A stretch of DNA of 18,417 nt, from positions 1 through 18,417 of the forward strand of contig NZ_SNUY01000074.1 of assembly GCF_004376175.1 (NCBI RefSeq). The letters are read 5' to 3'. The position numbers and the translations under genes were made by a program. The DNA is from Halalkalibacterium halodurans (GTDB taxonomy: Bacteria; Bacillota; Bacilli; Bacillales; Bacillaceae_D). This document shows, piece after piece, positions 1,806 to 18,417 of the stretch. Position 1 is the first letter of the stretch. Each line of letters starts with the position of its first letter. The notes beneath the pieces were generated by a model. It made no database searches. It was not told the DNA's origin and worked only from the letters and a program-made list of their open reading frames with translations.

Positions 1806-1895
1806 ATGAAAAAGTTATTTAATTTCAGAAGTATCCGAGCGAAAATTTTGTCCGGTTTCTCAGTAGTTATTCTATTAGTGCTTTGCTTAGGGTGA
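1806..1895 (+). pseudogene. N-terminal stub (29 codons) of a methyl-accepting chemotaxis protein
   Basis: ATG 1806 gives MKKLFNFRSIRAKILSGFSVVILLVLCLG*. This is the typical MCP N-terminus plus first TM helix. It ends at TGA 1893-1895, and no sensor, HAMP or signalling domain follows. Confidence 0.6.
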
Positions 1896-3428
1896 ATTGA
1901 TCGCACCCACACTCGCCGAAACGAATGACTGCATCAGGGAAGAGAACTGGCTGAGATCTTCTTCGACCGCTGCCATCATTGTTTCATGCACTTCTGCATC
2001 AAGGTCGTCCCCTTCAAAGGTATACTCTTTCACATTGTCGCCGATAGAGCCCCAGGAAGATTCCACGTTGCTGATGAGCCACGTGCTGTCATCTTCGTCA
2101 TAAGTCAGGGCATAAGTCATGTTATACAGTTCATCATATATATTCGGAGAATAGCCGCTGTAATAATCAGCTTCTTTCCAGTTTTCCGCGGTGGAAACAG
2201 ATGCCTGCCATCTGCCGTCCTGTTCGTATACAACAATGGAGTCCAGGTCGAAGCTGGTGGTTAAAAGGCTCCCGATATAAAGCTGGTCATTCCTGTTCAT
2301 GGAATTGATCGTCCTTGTAAGCTGTTCCCTAAGTGACGGCCCCGCATGCTGTACAGAAGACATGCTTCGTGAAATCTTAGCTTCTTTCCAGTCATGCAGG
2401 TATTCATTGACTGTTTCAAAAACGGACTCGGCGTCTTCCTCGCTCAGTGTAAAGCTGAATGACATATATTCAGAGTCCACTGTCCGCGGCTGGCTCTCGA
2501 TCGTACCGAACGGAGTTTCTTTTTCAAGGTGCATAGTTAATGACCCGTCAAGCAGAAGCGGCCCGAAATATTCCCCTTCTGCAGGGACTGAAGCACCAGT
2601 ATTTTCCCCATTTAAGAATATGTCTGCCCCGGCAATAGAGGAGTCGATTTCTGTATAGCTGATGCTGAACCAGAGATCGGCATAGTTTTCATGGAATAAT
2701 TCAACATCCGTTTCTACTTCCAGTTCCATGAACTCGCTGTCCAGTACGGCCTTCACATTATGGACGCCTGGAGGGAAGGTGCCGAGCGTAACCATGTCCT
2801 CGTGGGTATATTGCGGTTCTGTTTCGGTTCCGTTCACGAAAAACTGCACGTCGTGGTAATTAGTGTATACATGCAGCTCCTGGGGATGGACGGTAAACTC
2901 ATAGTTATCATAGAGGAAGAATTTTTTCCCCGTTTTCTCAAAGGTAATGAGCGGAATTTCCCAGTATTCATCGTGCACCGGCTCTTCGGCGGCAAGGCTG
3001 ATATTCCCTTTGTAGGAACGGGCCTGCTCATGGAAAGCATGTAACATTTCGTCTTTTAAATAAGGGTAGTCGTTGAAATAGGCTAGAATAGCTGCTGCAG
3101 ATTCCTCTGTGAAATCTTCTCCGTCGCCAGCATAGTTGAGGTAGCTCATAAGTGCTTCTGCGTCGCCTTCACTCACTGCTTCTGTGAATTGATCCAGTCG
3201 TTTTTCCGGATCTATATATGCTTCACCTGCTTTATACAAACCGAAAAATAAGGAAGCGGCAGCAATCACACTTCCGCCGATGACCATTGTTTTTTTCGAA
3301 AAAGAAGGCAGGGATTGCTTTGGCCCGGGAGCGTCCGGCGTGCCGGACACTTTCATTTCAGAGCCGCATTCCGTACAAAAACCAGATGAAGTCTCATGCT
3401 TTGCACCACATTTTGTACAAAAATTCAT
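1887..3428 (-). CDS. TcaA/YvbJ-like membrane protein (N-terminal zinc ribbon, one TM, large extracytoplasmic domain with NTF2-like module)
   Basis: ATG 3428 has a strong SD (aaaggagaa). The protein has CTKCG..CTECG at the N-terminus and a TM helix (MVIGGSVIAAASLFFGLY). An all-beta/PEGA-like middle follows, then an NTF2-like segment (LYIGSLLTTSFDLDSIVVYEQDGRWQASVSTAENW...TWLISNVE). This architecture is recalled from S. aureus TcaA and B. subtilis YvbJ. Confidence 0.7.
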   Translation of the reverse strand: MNFCTKCGAKHETSSGFCTECGSEMKVSGTPDAPGPKQSLPSFSKKTMVIGGSVIAAASLFFGLYKAGEAYIDPEKRLDQFTEAVSEGDAEALMSYLNYAGDGEDFTEESAAAILAYFNDYPYLKDEMLHAFHEQARSYKGNISLAAEEPVHDEYWEIPLITFEKTGKKFFLYDNYEFTVHPQELHVYTNYHDVQFFVNGTETEPQYTHEDMVTLGTFPPGVHNVKAVLDSEFMELEVETDVELFHENYADLWFSISYTEIDSSIAGADIFLNGENTGASVPAEGEYFGPLLLDGSLTMHLEKETPFGTIESQPRTVDSEYMSFSFTLSEEDAESVFETVNEYLHDWKEAKISRSMSSVQHAGPSLREQLTRTINSMNRNDQLYIGSLLTTSFDLDSIVVYEQDGRWQASVSTAENWKEADYYSGYSPNIYDELYNMTYALTYDEDDSTWLISNVESSWGSIGDNVKEYTFEGDDLDAEVHETMMAAVEEDLSQFSSLMQSFVSASVGAINSP

Positions 3429-3490
3429 TGGATGTTCTCCTTTATTGTAAATTGAAGTTATGTTTTTTTAGCAGGAAGCCGTTGGTCTGT

Positions 3491-5038
3491 TTAAGCTGCC
3501 TGATGTGAAGCAGTATTGCTGTTTACCCGGCTTGTGAAAAACATAGCGCCGGCATATGTGCCAATAAAGGCAAGGACCGAGCTGAACAAAAGTACAGCGA
3601 AGGTAGAGAAGCCGAGAGTCATCGTAAAGGCATCGCTAATGTTGGTAGTGACCGAGAAGCGGGTGATGGAAACGAGTGCCGCGTTAACGATACCAAAGGC
3701 AAGGGCGTAGGCGCCGATTTCATAGAGCAGGTTTCCGGAGCTTGCTTTCAAGAGTACCCCTCCCGTCCAGAAATGGATGGCCAGGGGGATCAGGACAAGC
3801 AGCCATAGATATCCGCCGAAAACTTCCTTCAAATCTTCTTCAAGGTAAGGGTCGTACGGTGTCACCTTGACTCCTCCGAGCACGGAATAGCTTGCACTCA
3901 CCTGTTCATAGTCCATCTGTGCATCAAAGCTGAGGGAAGCCAGCTGGGACAGTGACCAGAAATAGCCGCCTGTCTGTGATGCTACGAGCGTCCGCTCTCC
4001 TGTAGTGGCAGTGCTGAATTCATCATGTGCAGATATGGTAATGAACGCTGCAAAAAACATGATGGTCAGCCCGGCCACTGTGTTGACTGCTGCACGGGAT
4101 ATAGATACACCGTAACTTGTGTTTTTCCCTGGGCTCACTGACCTCGGAACGGAGAGTACAGCCCCTGCAGTGGTGAAAATCAGGCTGATGATTAAGGCAT
4201 TTATAAAAGTAGCGAAGAAACCGTAGCTTGCTGACACCGTTATATCGCCAATGAAGCCTGAAGGGTCCGGTACACTGATGGAAGCACCGCCGAACAGGCT
4301 GATGAATGCGATCAATACAGCGTAAACGAGTGCAAAGGAAAGATTATTATAAAGGCGTGGCAGCATTGCCGAGCTCTGCTGGTTACGGTTCATCAGGTAA
4401 CCGGCCAGGATAAGGACAACTGCGGGAATTGTAAGGAACAGGAAAAGCCCACTCGTTGTTGTGAGATGAAAGCTTGCAAACGCAATATCGGCACCGTAGC
4501 TTACCCCTGACATATGGCCGAGAAGCAGCAGGTCACTGGCAGTGATAAGTTTCAGGTTCTGCAGGATGTCCGGAGAAAGTAACATTCCAATTTCACTGGA
4601 AATCTCGTCCATGATCAATCCTTGGATATAACTGTTAAAGGTGGAGCTGATGATGAAAGTAAGAATGAATAACGTGGCAGCTGCCATACCGCTCCATTTA
4701 GCTGCATGGAGCAGATTATCTTTCTGGAAAATGTCCTGTAAACTTTTTAGTGCCCCTTCTTGGGAGTGGAGGTAACCGCTGCTGTTATCTGATCCTGCCG
4801 CTGTCTGGTGGAAGCCTGATTCTTTATGGGCAGCGCTGATTTTTTCAAGGGAGTGTCCGCAGCCGGTACAATAAACTGCCTCTGTTGAATGCTGTTCGCT
4901 GCAGTTACTGCAGTACTTGCTTTCACTCCGTGTAACCTGGGCGCCGTAAGTAGTAGTTAATGGCATGCCGTCATTAACACAGTAGAGGGCACCTTGTTCA
5001 TTTTTTGTTCCGCAATGTGTACAATGCAAAATATTCAC
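3491..5038 (-). CDS. Double zinc-ribbon polytopic membrane protein, family unknown
   Basis: The 515-aa ORF has an N-terminal CTHCG..YC (degenerate ribbon) and CSNCS..CTGCG (complete ribbon). About eight or more hydrophobic helices follow. The GTG start at 5038 has only a short spacing to aagga, so the true start may be a few codons downstream. Confidence 0.65.
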   Translation of the reverse strand: MNILHCTHCGTKNEQGALYCVNDGMPLTTTYGAQVTRSESKYCSNCSEQHSTEAVYCTGCGHSLEKISAAHKESGFHQTAAGSDNSSGYLHSQEGALKSLQDIFQKDNLLHAAKWSGMAAATLFILTFIISSTFNSYIQGLIMDEISSEIGMLLSPDILQNLKLITASDLLLLGHMSGVSYGADIAFASFHLTTTSGLFLFLTIPAVVLILAGYLMNRNQQSSAMLPRLYNNLSFALVYAVLIAFISLFGGASISVPDPSGFIGDITVSASYGFFATFINALIISLIFTTAGAVLSVPRSVSPGKNTSYGVSISRAAVNTVAGLTIMFFAAFITISAHDEFSTATTGERTLVASQTGGYFWSLSQLASLSFDAQMDYEQVSASYSVLGGVKVTPYDPYLEEDLKEVFGGYLWLLVLIPLAIHFWTGGVLLKASSGNLLYEIGAYALAFGIVNAALVSITRFSVTTNISDAFTMTLGFSTFAVLLFSSVLAFIGTYAGAMFFTSRVNSNTASHQAA

Positions 5039-5771: not shown

Positions 5772-6407
5772 TTATAACTCAACTTTCGCACCACAAAATA
5801 AGCCTATAACCCTTGATACGCCTTAACCCAAACCAAACGAACTATGCAGCTTGCGCATGAAATTCACCATCACCAAGAAATGTCTTCTGTAGAAATTGAG
5901 GAAGACTATCAAACAGCTCATCGATGATGGATTGGACTTTTTCTTCAGAAAGCACGGGTTCCTTGGAAAGTGTTGATTTCAATGCATCTATGACCATCAT
6001 AAATGCCTGGGCGAACCGAACATCTTCCATTTCATCGCAGCACAAATAGAAGAGCTGTCCAATCGTTTTTGGATCCTTCTCTTCACGGGAACTTACGGCA
6101 AGCATGATATAGCGTGCGAAAACGATGGTGGTATGGGCAACCAGCGCATCATAATGGCGCGATTGGCATTCTTTCGCCAAACGAAGGTGGGATTTAGCGA
6201 CTTTGAAAAAACATTCGATATCCCAACGCTTCCCATAGAGACGAACGACTTCTTCTTAAAATACATCCCTTTCTGGTTTAGTTGTGGTGACTATATTTTA
6301 CCAAATTGGGATGTATTTTTGTGTGATTTTTTAATACTTTTTTCCGAAAGACCCCAGTCATATCAAGGGGTGGTTAATGTTTTTTAGATGCGAAAGTTGA
6401 GTTATAA
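5772..6407 (-). mobile_element. Internally deleted (non-autonomous) IS4-superfamily element, 636 bp, with intact termini
   Basis: There are perfect 19-bp terminal inverted repeats: ttataactcaactttcgca at 5772-5790 and its reverse complement at 6389-6407. Similarity extends imperfectly to ~50 bp and includes cccttgata/tatcaaggg. Inside, only the C-terminal third of a DDE transposase remains. Confidence 0.8.
5842..6255 (-). pseudogene. C-terminal remnant of an IS4-superfamily DDE transposase
   Basis: The frame is open from 6255 and preceded by an in-frame TAA at 6256-6258. The translation is EEVVRLYGKRWDIECFFKVAKSHLRLAKECQ.... It carries the Y-x2-R-x3-E-x6-K signature of the third catalytic region. 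The N-terminal DD region is absent. Confidence 0.8.
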
Positions 6408-9202: not shown

Positions 9203-10493
9203 ATGAAAGGGAAAGAGACGATTCTGGTTAATGAGTTTATCAATGGGGTGCTGGATCCTGAAGATGAAATGCTGGGGCCTGTGAAAGACGGGGGACATAT
9301 TGTTGCCAACACAACACCAGGCTGCTAGGGGCCGATGATCACTCCATGTCTTCGTGGCGGACATGAAGTTACGAAGCCTGTGTATGTGGAGGGTGCTGAA
9401 GTTGGTGACGCAATAGCGGTAAAAATCGAGTCGATCCGTGTTACTTCCATTGCTACTGCTTCTGGTCATGATCAGCCGGTGGAGGGGCGTTTTAACGGTG
9501 ATCCTTTCGTTGCGCCGAAATGTCCTAATTGCGGTACTGTGAATCCGGATACGAGAATAGAAGGAATCGGCCAGGAAGCAATCAGATGTGCCGAATGCGG
9601 CGAGGATATTACTCCTTTCAGATTTACGAATGCTTATACGATGACATTTAATGATGGAAAGCAGGTTGGGATTACATTAAACCAGCAGGGTGCTGAGAAA
9701 ATCGCCCATGATGGGAAACACTATATGTTGACTCCGGCAAACTCCGTTCAAAACCCGATTGTGACGTTTGCTCCCCATGATATTGTCGGGGCTATTGCGA
9801 GGCTTCGGCCATTCCTTGGTCAGCTGGGGACGACACCGGCAAGACCTATGCCTGATTCTCATAATGCCGGGGACTTCGGTTCGTTTCTCGTCGGTGCCCC
9901 CATGATTACACGTTAACGAAGGAAGAGCTGGAAGACCGGACGGGCATATGGACATTAACCGGGTCCGTGAAGGGGCGGTCCTCATTTGCCCGATGAAAGT
10001 TCCAGGCGGCGGTATTTATTTAGGTGATATGCATGCCATGCAAGGGGATGGGGAAATAGCCGGCCATACGACGGATGTTTCCGGCATCGTAACTCTGAAG
10101 GTGGAGGTTTTGAAGGGGCTCACGATTGACGGGCCAATTCTGCTGCCGGTGGAGGAAGATTTGCCATACTTGGCAAAACCGATCACTGCATCTGAGAGAA
10201 AACAGGCGGAACAGCTTGCTGCAGAGTGGGGAATGGAAAAGCAGTTAGAAGAGTCTCTGCCGCTGTCATTTATCGGTACGGGAGAAAACTTAAATGCTGC
10301 TACAGATAATGGAATGGAAAGAGCAGCTAAATTACTTGAGATGAGTGTGCCGGAAGTCATGAACCGGGCAACTATAACCGGATCCATTGAAATCGGCCGC
10401 CATCCAGGCGTCGTGACGGTAACCTTCCTTGTGCCAGTCGAACGTATAAAGAAACTAAAACTTGAAAAGTATGTTGCGGAGCAGTATATGTAG
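9203..10493 (+). pseudogene. Acetamidase/formamidase (FmdA_AmdA) family gene, disrupted
   Basis: ATG 9203 has SD ggagg. An in-frame TAG at 9326-9328 sits where the family has Trp (PGC*GPMITP). The reading frame changes from frame 2 (ends 9916) to frame 0 (track ORF from 9948). A C5 run at 9897-9901 is a candidate slip site. The conserved GDMHAMQGDGEIAGH lies in the last segment. Confidence 0.8.
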
Positions 10494-10494
10494 C

Positions 10495-10547
10495 GGTGGC
10501 CTGTCACCACCCGAATAATCTTGTTTCACAGCAAATGTTTCACGGGG
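10495..10547 (+). repeat. Repeat family R, copy b
   Basis: ggtggcctgtcaccacccgaataatcttgtttcacagcaaatgtttcacgggg starts 2 nt after the amidase stop codon. It is ~90% identical to copy c. A ggggcgg/ccgcccc hairpin follows at 10544-10572. Confidence 0.8.
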
Positions 10548-10842: not shown

Positions 10843-10879
10843 TGGATATTAAAATGTATCGGTCGTATTATGGTATTAT
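10843..10879 (+). promoter_or_regulatory. Candidate sigma-A promoter(s) for the Hsp70 module
   Basis: One candidate has tggata (10843-10848), a 17-nt spacer and tattat (10866-10871). It overlaps an extended -10, tg-g-tattat (10871-10879). Both lie ~55-70 nt upstream of ATG 10935. Confidence 0.35.
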
Positions 10880-10934: not shown

Positions 10935-12299
10935 ATGGACTATGCTCGGGAAAAGGAAAAATGGTATAAACAATTTATGGGTTCGTCCGTAGCTGAGCAG
11001 TATACTTTGGTTATGGATTTATTGAGAAATCAGCCGGATGATGAGATGTTAATAAATGATGATTTCGGGATCATCCTTGTGGATTTAAAAGAGGGCCTTT
11101 TCAGAAGGAAACGTTTCGATGACACGATTGAATTAATTGACGTATTAAAAGTGAATACGCCTCAGTTTTATGCAGAAGAGGTTAACTATCTTTCTGACGC
11201 GCCTATACAATATTATTTATATAAAAATGATATTGAGAAGGTAAGGGAATATTTTCAGGCGTATATCGGCAATCCTTCCAAAGCACCAGAGGTATTTATT
11301 CATTTATTTAACAAACTGCTGTTATACAAACAAACGGATTTAGCGATAGAAATTGCGGAAGCTGTATGGAGGAAAATAGCGGAGAGTCCGGATTTAATCT
11401 ATGGAGCGGAAGGAGACTTCAAAGAGGCAATTATCAATCAGGAATTTCAGGAATACTATCTCAGCCTGTTGAGTGATAGTGGTAATTCTGACGTGAAACT
11501 TATTCAGATGAAGAAGAAATTTGAAGGATTAAATGTCGCGCCAGGCTTTCTGGATAAAAGTTTGCCCCTTGCTTTAACAGCTCTTAAACGAATATCCGAA
11601 CGGGAGGCCGGCCCTGTTTTTGAGAAAAAGGATTGGGATACACACCTTGAGGCTGCTCCAAGTGATGCAGTTTATCAACTATCCTGGGCGTTCGCCGCAT
11701 ACATGCTTTTCGGGAAAAAAATCCCATTTACAGCCAGCCTGAAGATTTGGCGGGAGTTCCTGAAGGTTCTGACTGTAAGTAAAGCAGGAGGTGTTTCCTT
11801 TGACCTGAACACCTCAGATTTTAAGCAAGAAACCGGCGATTTATTAACAGGTATAGGCACCGGGGAAACAGGATTTATGCTCCTTTGGGGACTACCATAT
11901 ATTTATGACTTTTTGGAACAGGAGCAGTTAATTGCTCAAGATGTAAAACAAGAGGCGTTAAACACTATTCAGGCTGGAAAAAATGACGCGATTAAATATT
12001 ATAGCAGCCAACTTTGGAGATTTAATTTTGTACATGTATGGGAAAAGCCGGATTGTATAACTGAGGAAGAATTTACCGGGGAAAAAGCGATGTTCAGAGA
12101 AACCTTTACATCTCCTCCAGAGATGGACGATAAACCAGCATTCAGTAACTTTAACGGTTATTTATCCAGTGAAAGCAAGTCTTTATTTGACAATGCGCCC
12201 TTTGGAAATAAATCAGGTTCGAAAAGAAAAGGACCATCGAAAAAACAAAAAACAAAAAAAAGGAAGGATGCGAAAAAGCAGCGGAGAAAAAATCGTTAA
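10935..12299 (+). CDS. Hypothetical 455-aa all-helical protein with a poly-Lys/Arg C-terminal tail (first gene of the Hsp70 module)
   Basis: I preferred ATG 10935 to the track start at 10854, because aaggaggg lies 7 nt upstream of it. I recognise no motif. The last 30 aa are KSGSKRKGPSKKQKTKKRKDAKKQRRKNR. Confidence 0.75.
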   Translation: MDYAREKEKWYKQFMGSSVAEQYTLVMDLLRNQPDDEMLINDDFGIILVDLKEGLFRRKRFDDTIELIDVLKVNTPQFYAEEVNYLSDAPIQYYLYKNDIEKVREYFQAYIGNPSKAPEVFIHLFNKLLLYKQTDLAIEIAEAVWRKIAESPDLIYGAEGDFKEAIINQEFQEYYLSLLSDSGNSDVKLIQMKKKFEGLNVAPGFLDKSLPLALTALKRISEREAGPVFEKKDWDTHLEAAPSDAVYQLSWAFAAYMLFGKKIPFTASLKIWREFLKVLTVSKAGGVSFDLNTSDFKQETGDLLTGIGTGETGFMLLWGLPYIYDFLEQEQLIAQDVKQEALNTIQAGKNDAIKYYSSQLWRFNFVHVWEKPDCITEEEFTGEKAMFRETFTSPPEMDDKPAFSNFNGYLSSESKSLFDNAPFGNKSGSKRKGPSKKQKTKKRKDAKKQRRKNR

Positions 12300-12370
12300 T
12301 TGGTTAATAAACATGCTGTTGATAATCGAAGCCTTCAGTCAATCTTCATACAGAAAGAAGGAAACAGGGA

Positions 12371-12922
12371 ATGAAATTTATGTTCTGGAAAAAAGAAGAA
12401 AGTCTGCTTATACAAGAGCTTAGGGAAGCAAGGGAACAATTTTCTTCCATGGAAGAAAAACTTTCTGATATGGACAAGCAGATTCAAAAGGCGACCCGGC
12501 TCCAGTATAAAACAGGGAAAAATATCGAAGGGAAACTCGGCGATATAGGAAGTTTATTAGACGCGAGGAAAGAAACCGGAACCGTTCCTCTGAGCGATGC
12601 AGCCATTGAGAAACTGATCCGGCAGGTGGATGATATGGATCTTGTCCATGCCGGTTTGGCTGAGGACACACAGTGGGCTGAGCTATTAATAAAATGGAAG
12701 GATTCTCTATTATCGCTCCTTGCTGAAGCGGGAGTGCGTGACAGCGTCCGCCCGGGAGACATGTTCGACCCTGCGTTAGCGGAAGCGGTGGAGGCAGTCG
12801 AACTTGCTGAACCGCACCGTCCTTTTGAGGTATTTCGCGTTTATAAAAGGACTTTCACAAATTCATCTGGAGAAGTAATCAGAAAAGGACAAGTTGCAAC
12901 TGTAAAGGAGGAAAGGAAATGA
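12371..12922 (+). CDS. GrpE-like nucleotide exchange factor (divergent)
   Basis: The 183-aa size is GrpE-like and the N-terminus is a coiled coil. The C-terminus [24 protein letters not shown]...[26 protein letters not shown] aligns by eye with B. subtilis GrpE [24 protein letters not shown]...LQKGYKLKDRVLRPAMVKV. Its stop overlaps the hsp70 start (ATGA). Confidence 0.7.
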
Positions 12923-14769
12923 CACCAACAAAAAATTCCGCAGAGAACTCGTTTCGGCCGATTGTAGGTATTGATTTAGGCACGACAAATTCCGCGGCCG
13001 CCTATATTCACAAACAGAAGCCCAAAATGCTTACGCTGAAAAATGGTGAACGTTTGATGCCCTCCGTCGTACTTTTAAATCAAAATGGGCAGATAATCGC
13101 CGGAGAAGAGGCGCGGAACGCCCTTGTTGCCATGCCTGAGCGAACGAAAGCGGCTGTGAAAAGAAGCATGGGCGAAAAGATAACTTTTTCCATGGGGGAC
13201 CAGGCATATACTCCCGAAGAATTATCTGCTTTTATTTTAAAAGAAATTAAAAGATCGGTTGATAAAGAGCTTGGAGAAGGCGATAAGGAAGCTGTCATCA
13301 CTGTGCCGGCCTATTTTACGAATGCCCAGCGGCAAGCTGTTAAAAAGGCTGGCGAGCTTGCAGGCTTTGTCGTGGAGAGAATTATAAATGAACCGACTGC
13401 CGCGGCTCTCGCGTACGGTCTGCAGCAAGGGGATGAAGACAAGCATATTCTCGTTTATGATCTGGGTGGAGGCACCTTTGATGTTTCTATCGTGGAGCTT
13501 ATGGGGGGAATCATGGAGGTCAAGGCTTCCGCCGGAAATAACCAGCTTGGGGGCGAGGATTTTGACTGGCTTCTTGTGGACTGGCTGGCGGATAAAGTGG
13601 TGGCTGAACATGGCACAGACCCACGGGAAGACATTCGAGGGAAAGCACGTTTGAAGGAAGAAGCGGAGAAAATAAAAAAGGACTTATCGTTTCAAAGCTC
13701 TGTTGACGTATCGGTTCCGGTTATTACTGTGAAAAATAACGCGCCTGTTGGACTGGATTGCACTATACAAAGGGAGGAATTCGTCTCACTTATCACTCCG
13801 CTGCTGGATGAAACAAAGGAAAAACTTAGTCATGTTTTAGAGGATGCCGGCCTCGCGCCAGGTGATGTGGACGAGATTCTCCTTGTTGGCGGATCAACGA
13901 AAATTCCTCAAGTGCAACAGCTCATCACCTCATTTTTTAATAAGCAGCCAAAAACGGATATTAACCCGGACGAAGCGGTAGCATTAGGTGCTGCTGTCCA
14001 GGCGGGAATAAAATCCGGGGCGTTTTCTGATAATGGGCTCATCGTCACTGACGTTGCCCCATTTTCGATGGGAATTGCTGTGTTAAGCGCCCAGCCAGGG
14101 AACGTTGGTAAACCTGGGGCGTTCCATGCGATTATTCCCCGCAATACGACGATTCCCGTGACTCGGACGGAAAGATATACGACAACTTCCCATAACCAGC
14201 CGGGGGTGGAGATTGAAATCTATCAAGGGGAAAATAAATGGGTCAAGGATAACTACTTTCTCAATGAGTTTCTGCTGGAGGGGCTTCCTTTAAAGCCTGC
14301 AGGCGAAGAAGCGGTGGATGTCACCTTCCGCTATAACCTTAACGGAATACTTGAAGTAAGCGCGAAGAGTGTGAGCACCGGGGCGGAAATGAGTGTTACT
14401 ATTGAAGATGCTTTAGACAGAAGTTCAGAAGAGGCGTTTTATGACAGCCTGGCTAAAGTGGAAGCGGCTTTCCAGCCGGAGGAGCACGAGGATGCATCCG
14501 ATGAAGAGCTTAACTTGTTCACTCCTTTGGAAAATGACAATCAAGAAGAAGGCAGAGAAAGACCGGACTCTCTTCAGGACCTTATTAAAGAAGCGGATGA
14601 ATGGAAAAGACGTTTTACAAAAGAACTGGAAAATCGTGACGGCGAAACGGAAAAACAGATAAATGCGGTGATTAACAGATTAGCTGCGGCGGCAGAAGAA
14701 AAAAACACGGAGGTTCTTAACGAAGCGATTGAGAGCGCCATCGACTTAGCTGTCGACCTGGAACTGTAA
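12919..14769 (+). CDS. Hsp70 family ATPase, non-housekeeping DnaK paralogue
   Basis: The protein has [52 protein letters not shown] and [14 protein letters not shown]. The SBD ([13 protein letters not shown]...) is present. It has a divergent N-terminal extension and an acidic C-terminal region. The SD aaaggagg precedes the ATG. Confidence 0.92.
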
Positions 14770-14918
14770 TATGCCTCTGGAATTTTAATAAAAGCATATT
14801 TTCTAAAAACCCGAAGTTTCCAGGAGGAAGGCTTGCTTTTTTAGAGCAGGAGGCATATCCATTAAAAAAAAACGGTTTTGATTCTGAGAATAAAGAGTAT
14901 ATAGAAGGAGGGTTTTCT

Positions 14919-16160
14919 TTGGCTGTAACTCCGGACGAAAGTTTATATAAGATTTTGGGGACCACCGCAAAGATCAGCCAGCGGAGGATAAAAGAAAAAT
15001 ATATTGAGGCAGTTAAAAAACATCCCCCGGAAACTGACCCGGACCAATTTGAAAAAATACGCCAGGCATATGAAGTATTAAAAGACCCGGTGAAGCGGAA
15101 AGAGTATGATATTTCCAGAAAATACGGCGGGAAAATAGAGAATATCCTGAGGAAAGCATCGGAGGATGTGGAAAAAGGGAATTTTCAAAAAGCCCAGAAA
15201 AAGTACAACGAGTTACTGGCCATCGATCCTGACAACTTGTCAGGGAAAATTGGCGTCATGTTCTCTTCCATTGGTTTAGATGACTTGGAGAGCGCATATG
15301 CCGTGTTTGATGATTTGAGCAATAATGTTTCTGCTCTGGAAGAAGAAGGGCTTGAGCTTGATTTTATTTACTCTGTTTTTTCAAAAATGCTGATAGAAAA
15401 GGGATATACAGCGGAAGCGTATGGGATTCTGGAAGATGCATTAAAAGAATTCCCGCGTTCTGCTGGTTTAGCTGAGCCTATGATATTTCTCTGTCTCGGT
15501 ATGGATAAGACTGACAAGGCTCTGGACGTTGCGGAAATGACTCTGCCGGCAGAAGGCGAAGAAAGTTTTGAAGATATTGATTCTTATATCCTCTGGGTCC
15601 ATACTATTGTGAGACTTGGGCGGTGGGCTGATTTGTCTAAAGCACAGACCCGCTTCAGGAAGTTTCTGAAAAGGATGGAAGACGAAGAAGAAAAGGACGG
15701 GGCCTTCAGTGTATTGATGGAGCAGTACGAAGAAGCGTATATCCACCAGAGTTACCGGGTTGCCGATATATTTATTGACTTAGCTAAAATAGTTAATGTG
15801 GGAATGTTTGACTTAAAAGAGCAAATCAAGGAAGTCAAGAAGTTAGTGCGGATAGAAAAGGATTTCAACCGGCTGTTTCGCGACACGGATTTATTTCCTC
15901 TCATCCTGCGCCAGGCTGTCCATTTATACTTTGATGATGAAGATCACCCGGCAATTCAGATGCTGGAGGAAAATTTTACTCCGGATATAATCAATGAACT
16001 GGAACAAGAAGCAGAGTACTATGCTGCGGGCATTCTGTACTTGAAAAAGAAATACCCGGCATTTTACTCCGAGTATAAACAAACCTGGGACCGTTTATAT
16101 GATGATTTGACACAAAACTTCAACCGGGAAATGAAGCGGGGGCTGCGGAAGCTCATATGA
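14919..16160 (+). CDS. J-domain protein with TPR-like/helical C-terminal region; HPD motif replaced by HPP
   Basis: The TTG start has SD gaaggaggg 7 nt upstream. The J-domain is SLYKILGTTAKISQRRIKEKYIEAVKKHPPETDPDQFEKIRQAYEVLKDPVKRKEYD. There is no Gly/Phe region or Cys-rich zinc finger. A TPR-like segment is present (GNFQKAQKKYNELLAIDPDN). Confidence 0.85.
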   Translation: MAVTPDESLYKILGTTAKISQRRIKEKYIEAVKKHPPETDPDQFEKIRQAYEVLKDPVKRKEYDISRKYGGKIENILRKASEDVEKGNFQKAQKKYNELLAIDPDNLSGKIGVMFSSIGLDDLESAYAVFDDLSNNVSALEEEGLELDFIYSVFSKMLIEKGYTAEAYGILEDALKEFPRSAGLAEPMIFLCLGMDKTDKALDVAEMTLPAEGEESFEDIDSYILWVHTIVRLGRWADLSKAQTRFRKFLKRMEDEEEKDGAFSVLMEQYEEAYIHQSYRVADIFIDLAKIVNVGMFDLKEQIKEVKKLVRIEKDFNRLFRDTDLFPLILRQAVHLYFDDEDHPAIQMLEENFTPDIINELEQEAEYYAAGILYLKKKYPAFYSEYKQTWDRLYDDLTQNFNREMKRGLRKLI

Positions 16161-16171
16161 AGGAAGCGCAG

Positions 16172-16225
16172 GGGTGCCTGTCACCACCCGAATTTTCTTG
16201 TTTCACAGAGAATGTTTCACGGGGG
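16172..16225 (+). repeat. Repeat family R, copy c
   Basis: gggtgcctgtcaccacccgaattttcttgtttcacagagaatgtttcacggggg starts 12 nt after the J-protein stop. It is a direct repeat of copy b. Confidence 0.8.
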
Positions 16226-16249: not shown

Positions 16250-16288
16250 CGGGTACTCAGATATTTTGGGTACCCGTTCTTCTTTTGG
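16250..16288 (+). terminator. Candidate rho-independent terminator of the Hsp70 module
   Basis: cgggtac (16250-16256) pairs with gtacccg (16270-16276) around a 13-nt loop. The tail ttcttcttttgg follows. Confidence 0.5.
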
Positions 16289-16496: not shown

Positions 16497-16557
16497 CTCG
16501 CTATTTCCTGGCAATCCTTTTTGTAGACCAATACAAAAAATAGGAGGAAATAGCGAG
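16497..16557 (+). promoter_or_regulatory. 13-bp perfect inverted repeat enclosing the SD and start of the ISL3 transposase
   Basis: ctcgctatttcct (16497-16509) pairs with aggaaatagcgag (16545-16557). The 3' arm covers part of aggagg and the G of GTG 16557. Confidence 0.45.
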
Positions 16558-17711
16558 TGAAAACAAATATATGTTTACCACTAGGATTGCCAGAGTTTGT
16601 AATTTTAAAACAGGAGATTCTAAAGGACTTCATCTATTTGGATGTCGAAACGAACGAACAGCCAAAATGTTGCATTCATTGTGGCTTCTCTATGCTTAAA
16701 AAGCATGACCAGCGCATGAGAAAGGTACGGGATTTAGATCTATTAGATAAAACTCTTTATCTGTTTGTACATGTAAAGCGCTGGCGTTGTCAGAATTGCC
16801 AAGAGGTCTTTTCTGAGCCACTATCTTCTATCCCTGCTGGTAAACATCAAACCTATCGGTTTCGTAGGAAGGTATTTGAAATGTGCATTGGTACAACAAT
16901 CAGTGATGTAAGCCGAAAGTTAAAAGTTAGCTATAAGACCGTTGAAAGAATCTACTATGATATCGCTTCGAAAGAAGTGAAAGAGCACTCTTGTTCAGGT
17001 GTCATTGGTATTGATGAAGTTGCTGTACGAAAAGGCCATAACTATGAAACGGTTGTGACAGATATTCAAACGGGATCTGTCCATCAAATGGGAGCGAATC
17101 GTGATTATGACTCCACAATCACTCTTCTAAAATCCTTTGAAAAGGCTCCTTCGGTGGTCGTAATGGACATGTGGAAACCTTTCTTTAGAGCTTGTAAGAC
17201 ACTTTTTCCTAAAGCCTCTATTGTGATTGATAAGTACCATGTTGTTCAAAAGATCAACCTAGCTCTTGACGCAGTCCGAAAGTCCAAAAGTAAAGAGATT
17301 AACGGAATCAAGAAGGGACGTTTCTGTCTGCTAAAACGTCGCTTTCGTCTAACTGAGAAACAGTTCAAAAGATTGGAAGCCTACCATGATCAATCCGAAG
17401 AACTTGCTCATGCGTACTATCTAAAAGAGTGGTTTTATGACTTATACCAGCAACCATCTTATAAAGATGCATCTACTTTTTTAGATAACTGGATAAAAGA
17501 AGCTAGGATGAGTCCTTTCCCCTCTTTTCATGATGTATGCAAGACCTTGGAAACATGGAAACCATTTATACGTCTCTTCACCACTTTCTGTGGTACACGC
17601 ACAATTCCAGAAATAAAGTTAGCGAGATTAGATACTAATCTAGTCGAACTCCTTCATCTGCTTAGGCACCATTCAGTTGGTAGGTTGAAAGCGGTCAAGT
17701 GGGTTCCTTGA
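16557..17711 (+). pseudogene. ISL3 family transposase, C-terminal catalytic region lost (copy 1)
   Basis: The N-terminal zinc-finger region (CIHCG...CQNCQ) and the core (VVVMDMWKPF, VIDKYHVVQK) are ISL3-like. After ...TLETWKPFI (~17569), the expected L.YF..SNG.EG.NNKIK.IKR.AYGFRN segment is missing, although copy 2 has it. The tail RLFTTFCGTRT... is unrelated. The left IR was not identified. Confidence 0.75.
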
Positions 17712-17755
17712 CGGGTTTCAACCTACCAACTACCCTTTGGCTAGCTGATGAAGGA
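17650..17755. repeat. Two ISL3 right-end inverted repeats abutting tail-to-tail, 7 bp apart
   Basis: The arm at 17650-17699 (tccttcatctgcttaggcaccattcagttggtaggttgaaagcggtcaag) is an imperfect reverse complement of the arm at 17707-17755 (cttgacgggtttcaacctaccaactaccctttggctagctgatgaagga). The spacer is tgggttc. Confidence 0.75.
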
Positions 17756-17767
17756 ATTTGTAAGCTG

Positions 17768-18417
17768 TTAAGCTGCCTGTTTTTCATTAGTTTTTCCCGT
17801 ACACTCCAAAAATACACGTAAGCGAAATCGTTGGATATTTCGAAAGCCATATGCTCGCCTTTTGATGTTTTTAATTTTATGGTTTGTTCCTTCAATTCGA
17901 CCATTAGTGTACGGAGTGAGAAAGTACTGAAGGATAGATGCTTTCCACTTCTCCAGTGTTCTGGCAACCTCTTGATAAGCTCTAAATGGGCTTGCTTTTG
18001 CTTCATTGATCCAGTTATCTAATAGTTCTTCAGCTGTGTCATAGTCACTGGCTTGGTAGAAGTCACGGAATGATTCTTTTAAGTAGTAAGCCAAGGCCAA
18101 TTCATCATGTTCGTCGAGCCATCCTTCTAGCTGTTGCTTTTGTTGTTCAGTTAGATTTTCGTAGCCTTTTAATAAGGCAAATCTACCTTTTTTAAGTGTT
18201 GGAAACCGTTTTCTAACTTGATCTAAAGCTTGAGTCACTTTTTGAACGACATGGTATTTATCAATGACAAGACAAGCAGCTGGAAATAGCGTTTGGATGG
18301 CTTTATGGAACGGCTTCCACATATCGACGACAACCGTTTCTACACACGACTGAGAGAGTAAGTTCTTTGTTAAAAGGAGTTGAGTGGATTCAAAGCTTCG
18401 GTTCTCTTCCATCGCTA
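17768..18417 (-). CDS. ISL3 family transposase (copy 2), 5'-partial, runs off the window
   Basis: The frame is open to the window edge. It has VVVDMWKPFHKAI, VIDKYHVVQKV and the complete C-terminus YTNGRIEGTNHKIKNIKRRAYGFRNIQRFRLRVFL. Confidence 0.88.
   Translation of the reverse strand, partial: AMEENRSFESTQLLLTKNLLSQSCVETVVVDMWKPFHKAIQTLFPAACLVIDKYHVVQKVTQALDQVRKRFPTLKKGRFALLKGYENLTEQQKQQLEGWLDEHDELALAYYLKESFRDFYQASDYDTAEELLDNWINEAKASPFRAYQEVARTLEKWKASILQYFLTPYTNGRIEGTNHKIKNIKRRAYGFRNIQRFRLRVFLECTGKTNEKQAA

Follow-up and report, generated by a model that had tools for sequence, protein, structure and literature searches.

A GrpE-like, Hsp70, and J/TPR gene triad in Halalkalibacterium halodurans: a probable accessory Hsp70 machine of Bacillota

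Introduction

What does a divergent set of Hsp70-system genes do on an insertion sequence (IS)-rich contig of Halalkalibacterium halodurans, and is it a housekeeping chaperone operon or something else? The window analyzed here is this contig in its complete length of 18,417 bp. On it, four co-directional genes encode a protein of no recognized family (gene 1), a GrpE-like protein, an Hsp70, and a J-domain protein with tetratricopeptide repeats (J/TPR). An initial annotation, made from the sequence alone, had described the four as a self-contained accessory Hsp70 system; the 71-nt gap, 4-nt ATGA overlap, and 149-nt gap that it reported between them are exact (Table 1). Of bacterial genomes, 98.9% contain dnaK (PMC11019930), and published surveys never found derived Hsp70 paralogues without a bona fide DnaK (PMC13580251). 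Our literature searches did not find a description of an operon with this composition. We conclude that genes 2 to 4, here called the triad, probably form one operon for a specialized accessory Hsp70 machine, located in H. halodurans on recently acquired DNA. The triad is best read as horizontally spread, with a patchy distribution across Bacillota.

Results and Discussion

Conservation and distribution of the triad

The gene order GrpE-like, Hsp70, J/TPR is present in the window and at seven other loci (L011, L091, L096, L101 in Evansella vedderi, L102, L103 in Desulforamulus reducens MI-1, and L104). This three-gene order recurs in at least eight Bacillota lineages, with different neighbors at each, and because of that recurrence we regard the arrangement as beyond chance. 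At loci other than those of H. halodurans, the GrpE-like and Hsp70 genes overlap by up to 17 nt or lie up to 3 nt apart, and 2–16 nt separate the Hsp70 and J/TPR genes. A profile scan of genome contigs with the J/TPR alignment returned true family members at only 2 of 80 loci, the rest being generic J domains; synteny was therefore read from exact-protein contig look-ups. The order is kept in every long contig examined except that of Oceanobacillus. In addition, at least 30 of the 79 J/TPR clusters match an Hsp70 cluster by identical size of the longest contig.

All 79 clusters of the J/TPR family belong to Bacillota, and their hosts include Evansella, Lentibacillus, Salicibibacter, Oceanobacillus, Paenisporosarcina, Alkaliphilus, Dehalobacterium, and Desulfoscipio. 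More than 120 clusters are close to the Hsp70 (54–72% identity), nearly all of them named “Hsp70 family protein,” which is also the NCBI name for the window protein; these add D. reducens MI-1, Gracilibacillus, Schinkia, Paenibacillus, Aneurinibacillus, and Thermotalea to the hosts. Within H. halodurans, three other contigs hold the same four genes, 99.8–100% identical over these genes. The genes of the window that were looked up, including those of the flanking zinc-ribbon membrane proteins, occur in two H. halodurans assemblies only, on short contigs and never on a long one. A location on strain-specific, IS-rich DNA, the restriction to two H. halodurans assemblies, the patchy distribution, and the varying neighbors agree with the horizontally acquired context proposed in the initial annotation. 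There is no support for an origin from a plasmid or phage: neither the J/TPR protein nor a 5.8-kb block has a plasmid match, no close phage copies were found, and the phage Hsp70 matches reach 43% identity at most, which is no nearer than canonical DnaKs are.

We identified no CIRCE operator (controlling inverted repeat of chaperone expression) within 3 mismatches, and the upstream gene 1 has no HrcA family match in Pfam or NCBIfam. Because the Hsp70 also fails the DnaK thresholds and falls in a separate clade, and no class A DnaJ is present, the triad is, as judged from sequence, an accessory, strain-variable set and not the housekeeping operon, in line with the self-contained Hsp70, nucleotide-exchange factor (NEF), and J-protein set that had been proposed. 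The canonical hrcA-grpE-dnaK-dnaJ operon occurs in H. halodurans strain C-125.

The Hsp70 and its subfamily

The Hsp70 is 616 aa long and matches the Pfam HSP70 family with 528.7 bits. All of its ATPase and allosteric motifs are intact, with VERIINEPT invariant, and the equivalents of R167, N170, and T173, which contact the J domain in DnaK, are retained. The nucleotide-binding domain (NBD) is DnaK-like over the 245–300 region, including the length of the IIB loop, which is consistent with use of a GrpE. An N-terminal extension of ~11–14 residues contains a conserved motif, SFRP. The linker reads LIVTD, and DVAPFSMGI is found at the substrate-binding domain (SBD), whose loop L1,2 in SBD-beta has an insertion of 9–10 aa in the window protein. 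The lid has an acidic insert of ~25 aa at the junction of helices A and B, with a conserved EELNLF-like motif, and the chain ends at lid helix E (IDLAVDLEL). The intact ATPase motifs, N-terminal extension, DVAPFSMGI sequence, and acidic region had all been noted in the initial annotation and are confirmed, the acidic region being the lid insert. The C-terminal DLEL was considered as an EEVD-like TPR-binding tail and rejected, as it aligns to the end of lid helix E and not to a disordered tail.

The Hsp70 scored below the cut-offs of both NCBIfam DnaK equivalogs (536.7 against 648 for NF001413 and 533.9 against 822.55 for TIGR02350) and of the HscA equivalog (441.5 against 708.55), and no HscB or isc genes occur near the triad. 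Its best match among solved structures is the DnaK of Geobacillus kaustophilus (424 bits). A neighbor-joining (NJ) tree with 200 bootstraps was built from 16 family Hsp70s, 12 canonical DnaKs, E. coli HscA, and E. coli HscC; the canonical DnaKs (Bacillota, Proteobacteria, and Actinobacteria) came from dnaK-dnaJ loci fetched by chance, two PDB sequences, and E. coli. In this tree, which answers the call in the initial annotation for a phylogeny against the DnaK, HscA, and HscC clades, the triad Hsp70s are monophyletic and separate from the canonical DnaKs in 200/200 bootstraps. With a single HscC sequence in the set, the clade groups with HscC in 148/200 replicates, with DnaK in 47/200, and with HscA in 5/200. 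Mean identity between triad Hsp70s and canonical DnaKs is 42%, whereas canonical DnaKs are 64–87% identical across phyla. Because its equivalog scores are below the cut-offs and its clade is separate, we do not assign the Hsp70 to DnaK or HscA; its sequence points to an HscC-related paralogue with a remodeled SBD, marked by the L1,2 insertion and changed cleft residues.

The triad Hsp70 of D. reducens MI-1 (L103, 8001–9860) is labeled “Chaperone protein DnaK” in UniRef, which looks like a database mislabel. In a study of DnaK indels, the “Hsp70 from Desulfotomaculum reducens” was the sole sequence with an SBD-beta indel (PMC8910936); this sequence is probably the triad paralogue taken for DnaK. 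Some database entries named DnaK, such as that of D. reducens, would thus be the triad paralogue.

The J/TPR co-chaperone and the GrpE-like protein

The J/TPR protein is a class C J protein of 413 aa that matches DnaJ (PF00226) with 42.8 bits (gathering score 27.8) and TPR_19 with 32.5 bits (cut-off 25), and it has a conserved basic C-terminus. Its length is given as 463 aa in GenBank (TES48952.1), reaching into the spacer, and as 413 aa in RefSeq; the alignment of homologues favors 413 aa, in agreement with an N-terminus at the TTG start. The AlphaFold2 (AF2) model, with a predicted local distance difference test (pLDDT) score of 90.8, shows a J fold at the N-terminus that continues as a TPR superhelix, and the J-domain helices span residues 9–13, 21–34, 41–55, and 57–85 (pLDDT ~90). 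Foldseek with this model returned generic TPR only (consensus TPR, OGT-TPR, and PilF; probability 1.00, E ~1e-4). The G/F (glycine/phenylalanine-rich), zinc-finger, and C-terminal domains of class A and B J proteins are absent, as is a C-terminal membrane anchor.

In the window, the HPD tripeptide of the J domain is replaced by HPPE. This loss is family-wide: HPD occurs in none of the 79 members, which have [HFYN][PS][PQL]E instead. A motif census of the 79 counted HPPE in 30, FPPE in 23, YPPE in 7, and NPPE in 1, and inspection of the 18 members that the census pattern missed showed the variants HPPE, FPPE, YPPE, HPQE, HPLE, and HSPE. In a 24-sequence alignment, the first Pro and the Glu of the replacement motif are invariant. 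The HPP in place of HPD, the TPR repeats, and the lack of G/F and zinc-finger regions had thus been read correctly from the sequence.

The J domain aligns without gaps to those of E. coli DjlC and DjlB (HPETDPQGFKALRQAYE vs (H)PPETDPDQFEKIRQAYE), whereas its alignment to DnaJ requires a gap of 5–7 residues. In hhalign comparisons with DjlB and DjlC, the J region alone was matched (probability 80%, E 1.4e-5). At the level of sequence, a link to DjlB/DjlC is suggestive.

In Oceanobacillus, an orphan J/TPR subfamily (L094 and L095, 10001–11347) has proteins of 441–448 aa with the motif HP[QL]E. A Lys-rich insert of ~30 aa follows their J domain, and no adjacent Hsp70 or GrpE gene is present; these proteins may work with an Hsp70 encoded elsewhere.

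The GrpE-like protein (183 aa) matches PF01025 over its full length with 36.1 bits (cut-off 25.8), and its scores of 16–21 bits against the GrpE equivalog models are far under their cut-offs. At the FDP..H.A site it has FDPALAEA, as the initial annotation had stated; the orthologue alignment shows F-D-P and E/A retained and the His replaced. Other conserved motifs include DDMD and RKGQVxTVKE. The GrpE-like gene is translationally coupled upstream of the Hsp70 gene in at least eight lineages.

Comparison with known Hsp70 systems

HscC (YbeW) and DjlB/DjlC of E. coli resemble the triad in that a specialized, non-housekeeping Hsp70 is encoded beside its own class C J protein. An L1,2 insertion of 4–8 aa is an HscC trait (PMC8215388); the insertion is +6 in E. 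coli HscC and +6 to +10 in all 16 aligned triad Hsp70s. At DnaK position 392, in the linker (xxVTD), both have a Thr, and at position 399 (AP[FY]S) an aromatic residue; these two features are found throughout the triad family. Also alike, and family-wide too, are the segments YQGE[NH].WVK.N (YQGENHKVKNN in HscC) and F[RK]YNLNGILEV (FSYDINGLLEV in HscC), and in each the chain ends at lid helix E (IDLEL in the triad, AIEIP in HscC). With DjlB/DjlC the triad J domain shares a short helix II–III loop and the motif PETDP..F..RQAYE (HPETDP..F..RQAYE), in which Glu replaces the Asp of HPD. The statement in the initial annotation that no relative had been described was therefore too strong, as signatures of E. 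coli HscC and DjlB/DjlC are present in the SBD and the J domain. The distribution of HscC is likewise sporadic and suggestive of horizontal transfer (PMC8215388).

However, E. coli HscC is only 35% identical to the triad Hsp70, and the two differ in several respects. The triad Hsp70s are longer (597–625 aa vs 550–580 aa), retain a DnaK-like IIB region, lost in HscC, and are accompanied by their own GrpE-like gene, whereas HscC is thought to need no NEF; their lid has the acidic insert of ~25 aa, whereas that of HscC has a 9-aa deletion in helix B. Both DjlB and DjlC sit in the membrane through a tail anchor, whereas the J protein of the triad is soluble and has a TPR superhelix fused to it, and the His of their HPE is displaced or lost in the triad ([HFY]P[PQL]E). 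Sel1 (TPR-like) repeat genes are present at the E. coli hscC locus too; there, however, TPR-like and J functions are on separate genes, whereas they are fused in the Bacillota triad. In E. coli K-12, the cassette at the hscC locus (L106, 676000–684000) is duplicated and consists of a Sel1 gene (ybeQ/ybeT), a DUF1266 gene (ybeR/ybeU), and a J gene (djlB/djlC).

The canonical hrcA-grpE-dnaK-dnaJ operon has the same order of grpE, hsp70, and J genes and the same translational coupling of GrpE and Hsp70, and the NBD features of the triad are DnaK-like. The triad differs in having no hrcA or CIRCE and in a J protein without the G/F, zinc-finger, and C-terminal domains or HPD. HscA-HscB is alike in principle, as a duplicated Hsp70 has co-evolved with its own adjacent co-chaperone for a narrow task; the cyanobacterial DnaK3-DnaJ3 and the Myxococcus SglK-GrpS are dedicated Hsp70 paralogue sets on the same principle. 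The clades and partner architectures of these three differ from those of the triad, and none that we know of combines a GrpE, an Hsp70, and an HPD-less J/TPR protein. In eukaryotes, DNAJC3/P58IPK and DNAJC7 also fuse a J domain to a client-binding TPR scaffold; however, their domain order is reversed, the triad J domain being N-terminal. Pam16/Tim16 has a J-like fold without HPD. With DNAJC3, DNAJC7, and Pam16, no specific homology is detectable beyond the J and TPR folds, and the triad differs from them as a bacterial operon that includes an Hsp70 and a NEF of its own.

Proposed mechanism and significance

In the mechanism that we propose for the triad, the TPR superhelix would attach to one particular client or site, making the J/TPR protein a dedicated targeting factor. 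The J-like domain, with its basic helix II and invariant P-x-E loop, would dock on the interface of NBD, linker, and SBD-beta, and docking through the co-evolved P-x-E loop would trigger ATP hydrolysis, so that the remodeled SBD could capture the client. The GrpE-like protein would then release ADP and reset the cycle. In this model, the J loop, although altered, would still activate the ATPase, and client selection would fall to the TPR domain. By analogy with HscC, the task is likely narrow and stress-related rather than bulk folding.

Reviews list DnaK, HscA, and HscC as the full-length bacterial Hsp70 types and describe HscA and HscC as having dispensed with a nucleotide-exchange factor (PMC8215388). 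The triad Hsp70 family fits none of the three, as it appears to combine an HscC-like SBD with a DnaK-like, GrpE-dependent motor. We give about even chances to the view that the triad represents a fourth, so far undescribed class of bacterial Hsp70 systems, one that is HscC-related, depends on a NEF, and has a J protein that works without HPD. The HPD tripeptide is regarded as indispensable for ATPase stimulation, yet in the triad J domain it is lost and the loop that replaces it is strictly conserved. If the pair is active, it would offer a natural experiment on the triggering of Hsp70 by J domains, a possible intermediate in the evolution between DnaK and HscC, and a handle in Gram-positive bacteria on HscC-type function, which is obscure after 20 years.

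Several points weigh against a specialized accessory machine of this kind. The link between the three proteins comes from their genes, and their physical partnership is inferred. The triad is dispensable: in Lentibacillus sp. CBA3610 (L093, 7689–9987) it has decayed to a 52-aa GrpE remnant, an Hsp70 gene split into two open reading frames (ORFs), and an intact J/TPR gene, and in Oceanobacillus the J/TPR gene stands alone. As to HscC, the grouping comes from one HscC sequence in a distance tree, in which long-branch attraction is possible, and the H. halodurans J domain has pairwise scores of 81 and 69 with DjlB/DjlC vs 103 with DnaJ, which show no clear preference for DjlB/DjlC. Finally, H33 and D35 of HPD are essential in DnaJ, and a J domain in which Pro or Phe takes their places may, like the J-like protein Pam16, bind but fail to stimulate. 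With HPD lost, the J-like domain may only tether the Hsp70 and not stimulate it.

Gene 1

The product of gene 1 is 454 aa long, all-alpha, and solenoid-like, with a Lys/Arg-rich tail. The start at ATG 10935, unlike the upstream ATG at 10854, fits a family-conserved Trp at residue 10. As the initial annotation had it, the protein is helical, of no known family, and basic at its end: it has no family in Pfam, NCBIfam, PADLOC, or PHROGs, no sequence match in the PDB, and no fold match in the PDB or BFVD, and its AF2 model (pLDDT 90) is all-alpha. P58IPK appeared among its weak fold matches, and among those of gene 1 only. With 365 representatives (E ≤ 0.001), the gene 1 family is real but uncharacterized. 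Of 48 members scanned, 11 have a SEC-C motif at the C-terminus, where the window protein has the Lys/Arg-rich tail instead; two of the 48 are fused to a PRiA4_ORF3 domain.

Alternative explanations

The triad could instead be a second general-purpose DnaK system with broad clients, a back-up or one tuned to stress such as that of alkaline or saline habitats; we consider this unlikely. A complete set of Hsp70, NEF, and J protein would suit such a role, as NEFs are thought important for diverse clients (PMC8215388), DnaK duplication is known from 6.4% of bacteria (PMC11019930), and many of the hosts are alkaliphiles or halophiles. However, the co-chaperone has a TPR scaffold in place of the client-binding G/F, zinc-finger, and C-terminal domains, the substrate-binding cleft is remodeled, HPD is lost, the Hsp70 is just ~42% identical to DnaKs, and the CIRCE heat-shock operator is absent. 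It is more doubtful still that in H. halodurans all four genes form a functional unit in which gene 1 provides the chaperone client or adaptor. The 71-nt gap between gene 1 and the GrpE-like gene has no predicted terminator, the 49-nt direct repeats enclose precisely these four genes, and the same four occur together on the three other H. halodurans contigs; at 99.8–100% identity, however, those contigs are not independent observations. No Hsp70, GrpE, or J gene neighbors three gene 1 homologues (26–35% identical) on 10 readable contigs (L001–L010), and none of the seven other triad loci has a gene 1 homologue. Because of these two results we place gene 1 outside the functional unit: from its sequence relatives, it is an unrelated, strain-specific neighbor of the conserved chaperone set, possibly co-transcribed with the triad in H. 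halodurans. Of the four genes expected to travel together, only the three of the triad do so, in at least eight lineages, and the likeness of gene 1's position to that of hrcA is coincidental.

A further explanation, raised in the initial annotation and in our view the least probable, is that the triad is an anti-phage or conflict system in which an Hsp70 machine, aimed by the TPR protein through its HPD-less J domain, senses, remodels, or dismantles invader proteins, with gene 1 as effector or adaptor here. Were this so, the triad would be the first Hsp70-centered immune system in bacteria. The triad sits in variable regions, including the IS-rich window, and its patchy distribution is what horizontal transfer predicts. 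A type III Wadjet lies directly upstream in E. vedderi (L101, 1–7009: a JetD C-terminal fragment, JetA3, JetB3, and JetC3), and HEPN/MNT or HicAB modules are nearby in D. reducens and Dehalobacterium. Positive evidence is limited to such occasional toxin-antitoxin or Wadjet neighbors, and at least two of eight loci have no defense-type neighbors among their called genes: peptide ABC-transporter operons lie on either side of L091, and metabolic genes surround L102. The sole PADLOC-DB 2.0 match is a 23-bit partial one of the Hsp70 NBD to PDC-M61B, the other three proteins having none; an effector domain of the nuclease, protease, pore, or NADase kind is absent from the conserved triad, gene 1 is not conserved alongside it, and neither a plasmid copy nor a close phage copy was found. 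We therefore continue to favor a specialized accessory Hsp70 machine made up of genes 2 to 4.

Locus layout and flanking DNA

Table 1. Coordinates of features in the 18,417-bp window
Feature	Position	Strand	Remarks
Two zinc-ribbon membrane proteins	1887–5038	minus	One with YvbJ/TcaA-like domains
Apparent MITE-like element	5772–6407		27-nt inverted repeats (89% complementary) around 582 nt
Decayed formamidase/acetamidase gene	9335–10493	+	Pfam FmdA_AmdA matches on both fragments
49-nt direct repeat, left copy	10499–10547	+	Repeat search
Gene 1	10935–12299	+	ATG start behind AAGGAGG
GrpE-like gene	12371–12922	+	71-nt gap after gene 1
Hsp70 gene	12919–14769	+	4-nt ATGA overlap with GrpE-like gene
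Hsp70-J spacer, 149 nt	14770–14918	+	2–16 nt at orthologous loci
J/TPR gene	14919–16160	+	TTG start behind GAAGGAGG; 149-nt gap after Hsp70 gene
49-nt direct repeat, right copy	16176–16224	+	92% identical to left copy
Terminator-like hairpin	16250–16286 (hairpin 16250–16276)	+	Strong; 12-bp stem, then TTCTTCTTTT
ISL3-family transposase gene	16557–17711	+	384 aa in window, 401 aa in L098
Second ISL3 copy, inverted, partial	17768–18412		Contig end

The terminator that had been predicted after the last gene corresponds to a strong hairpin (Table 1), which is likely the end of the operon. The 149-nt spacer between the Hsp70 and J/TPR genes is unique to H. halodurans, the seven other lineages having the short gaps given above. 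As a structured RNA, this spacer was rejected (fold z-score −0.07, no Rfam matches). Upstream of the loci, inspection revealed no shared sporulation or sigma-B promoter motif, and consensus scans gave background levels.

The direct repeats that had been said to bracket the module are the 49-nt pair, which the contigs L098 and L099 carry as well. The repeat contains a hairpin, GGTGG-N7-CCACC, and two TGTTTCAC motifs, and a GC-rich hairpin follows the left copy. Each copy starts 6–16 nt past a stop codon and has a terminator-like hairpin downstream. Neither the repeat nor the window as a whole has an Rfam match. The repeat could be a recombination scar that delimits an inserted block or a species-specific intergenic repeat. 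The decayed neighboring gene is a broken formamidase gene, whose two ORFs correspond to profile positions 56–164 and 213–369 of 373; the N-terminus is gone, and the gene is split in L099 too.

The window is IS-rich as described; instead of the six clear IS copies counted earlier, it has five transposase ORFs (UPF0236/ISLre2-like, IS1182-like, IS200, and two ISL3) and one element at 5772–6407 that looks like a non-autonomous, miniature inverted-repeat transposable element (MITE)-like element, in which the small ORFs have no family matches. The zinc-ribbon membrane proteins cluster at 90% identity with proteins of Evansella sp. LMS18, a different genus; because of these shared clusters, we suggest that the whole contig is DNA recently exchanged between genera. 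At the junction of the two ISL3 copies (17675–17731), there is a near-palindrome of 25 nt.

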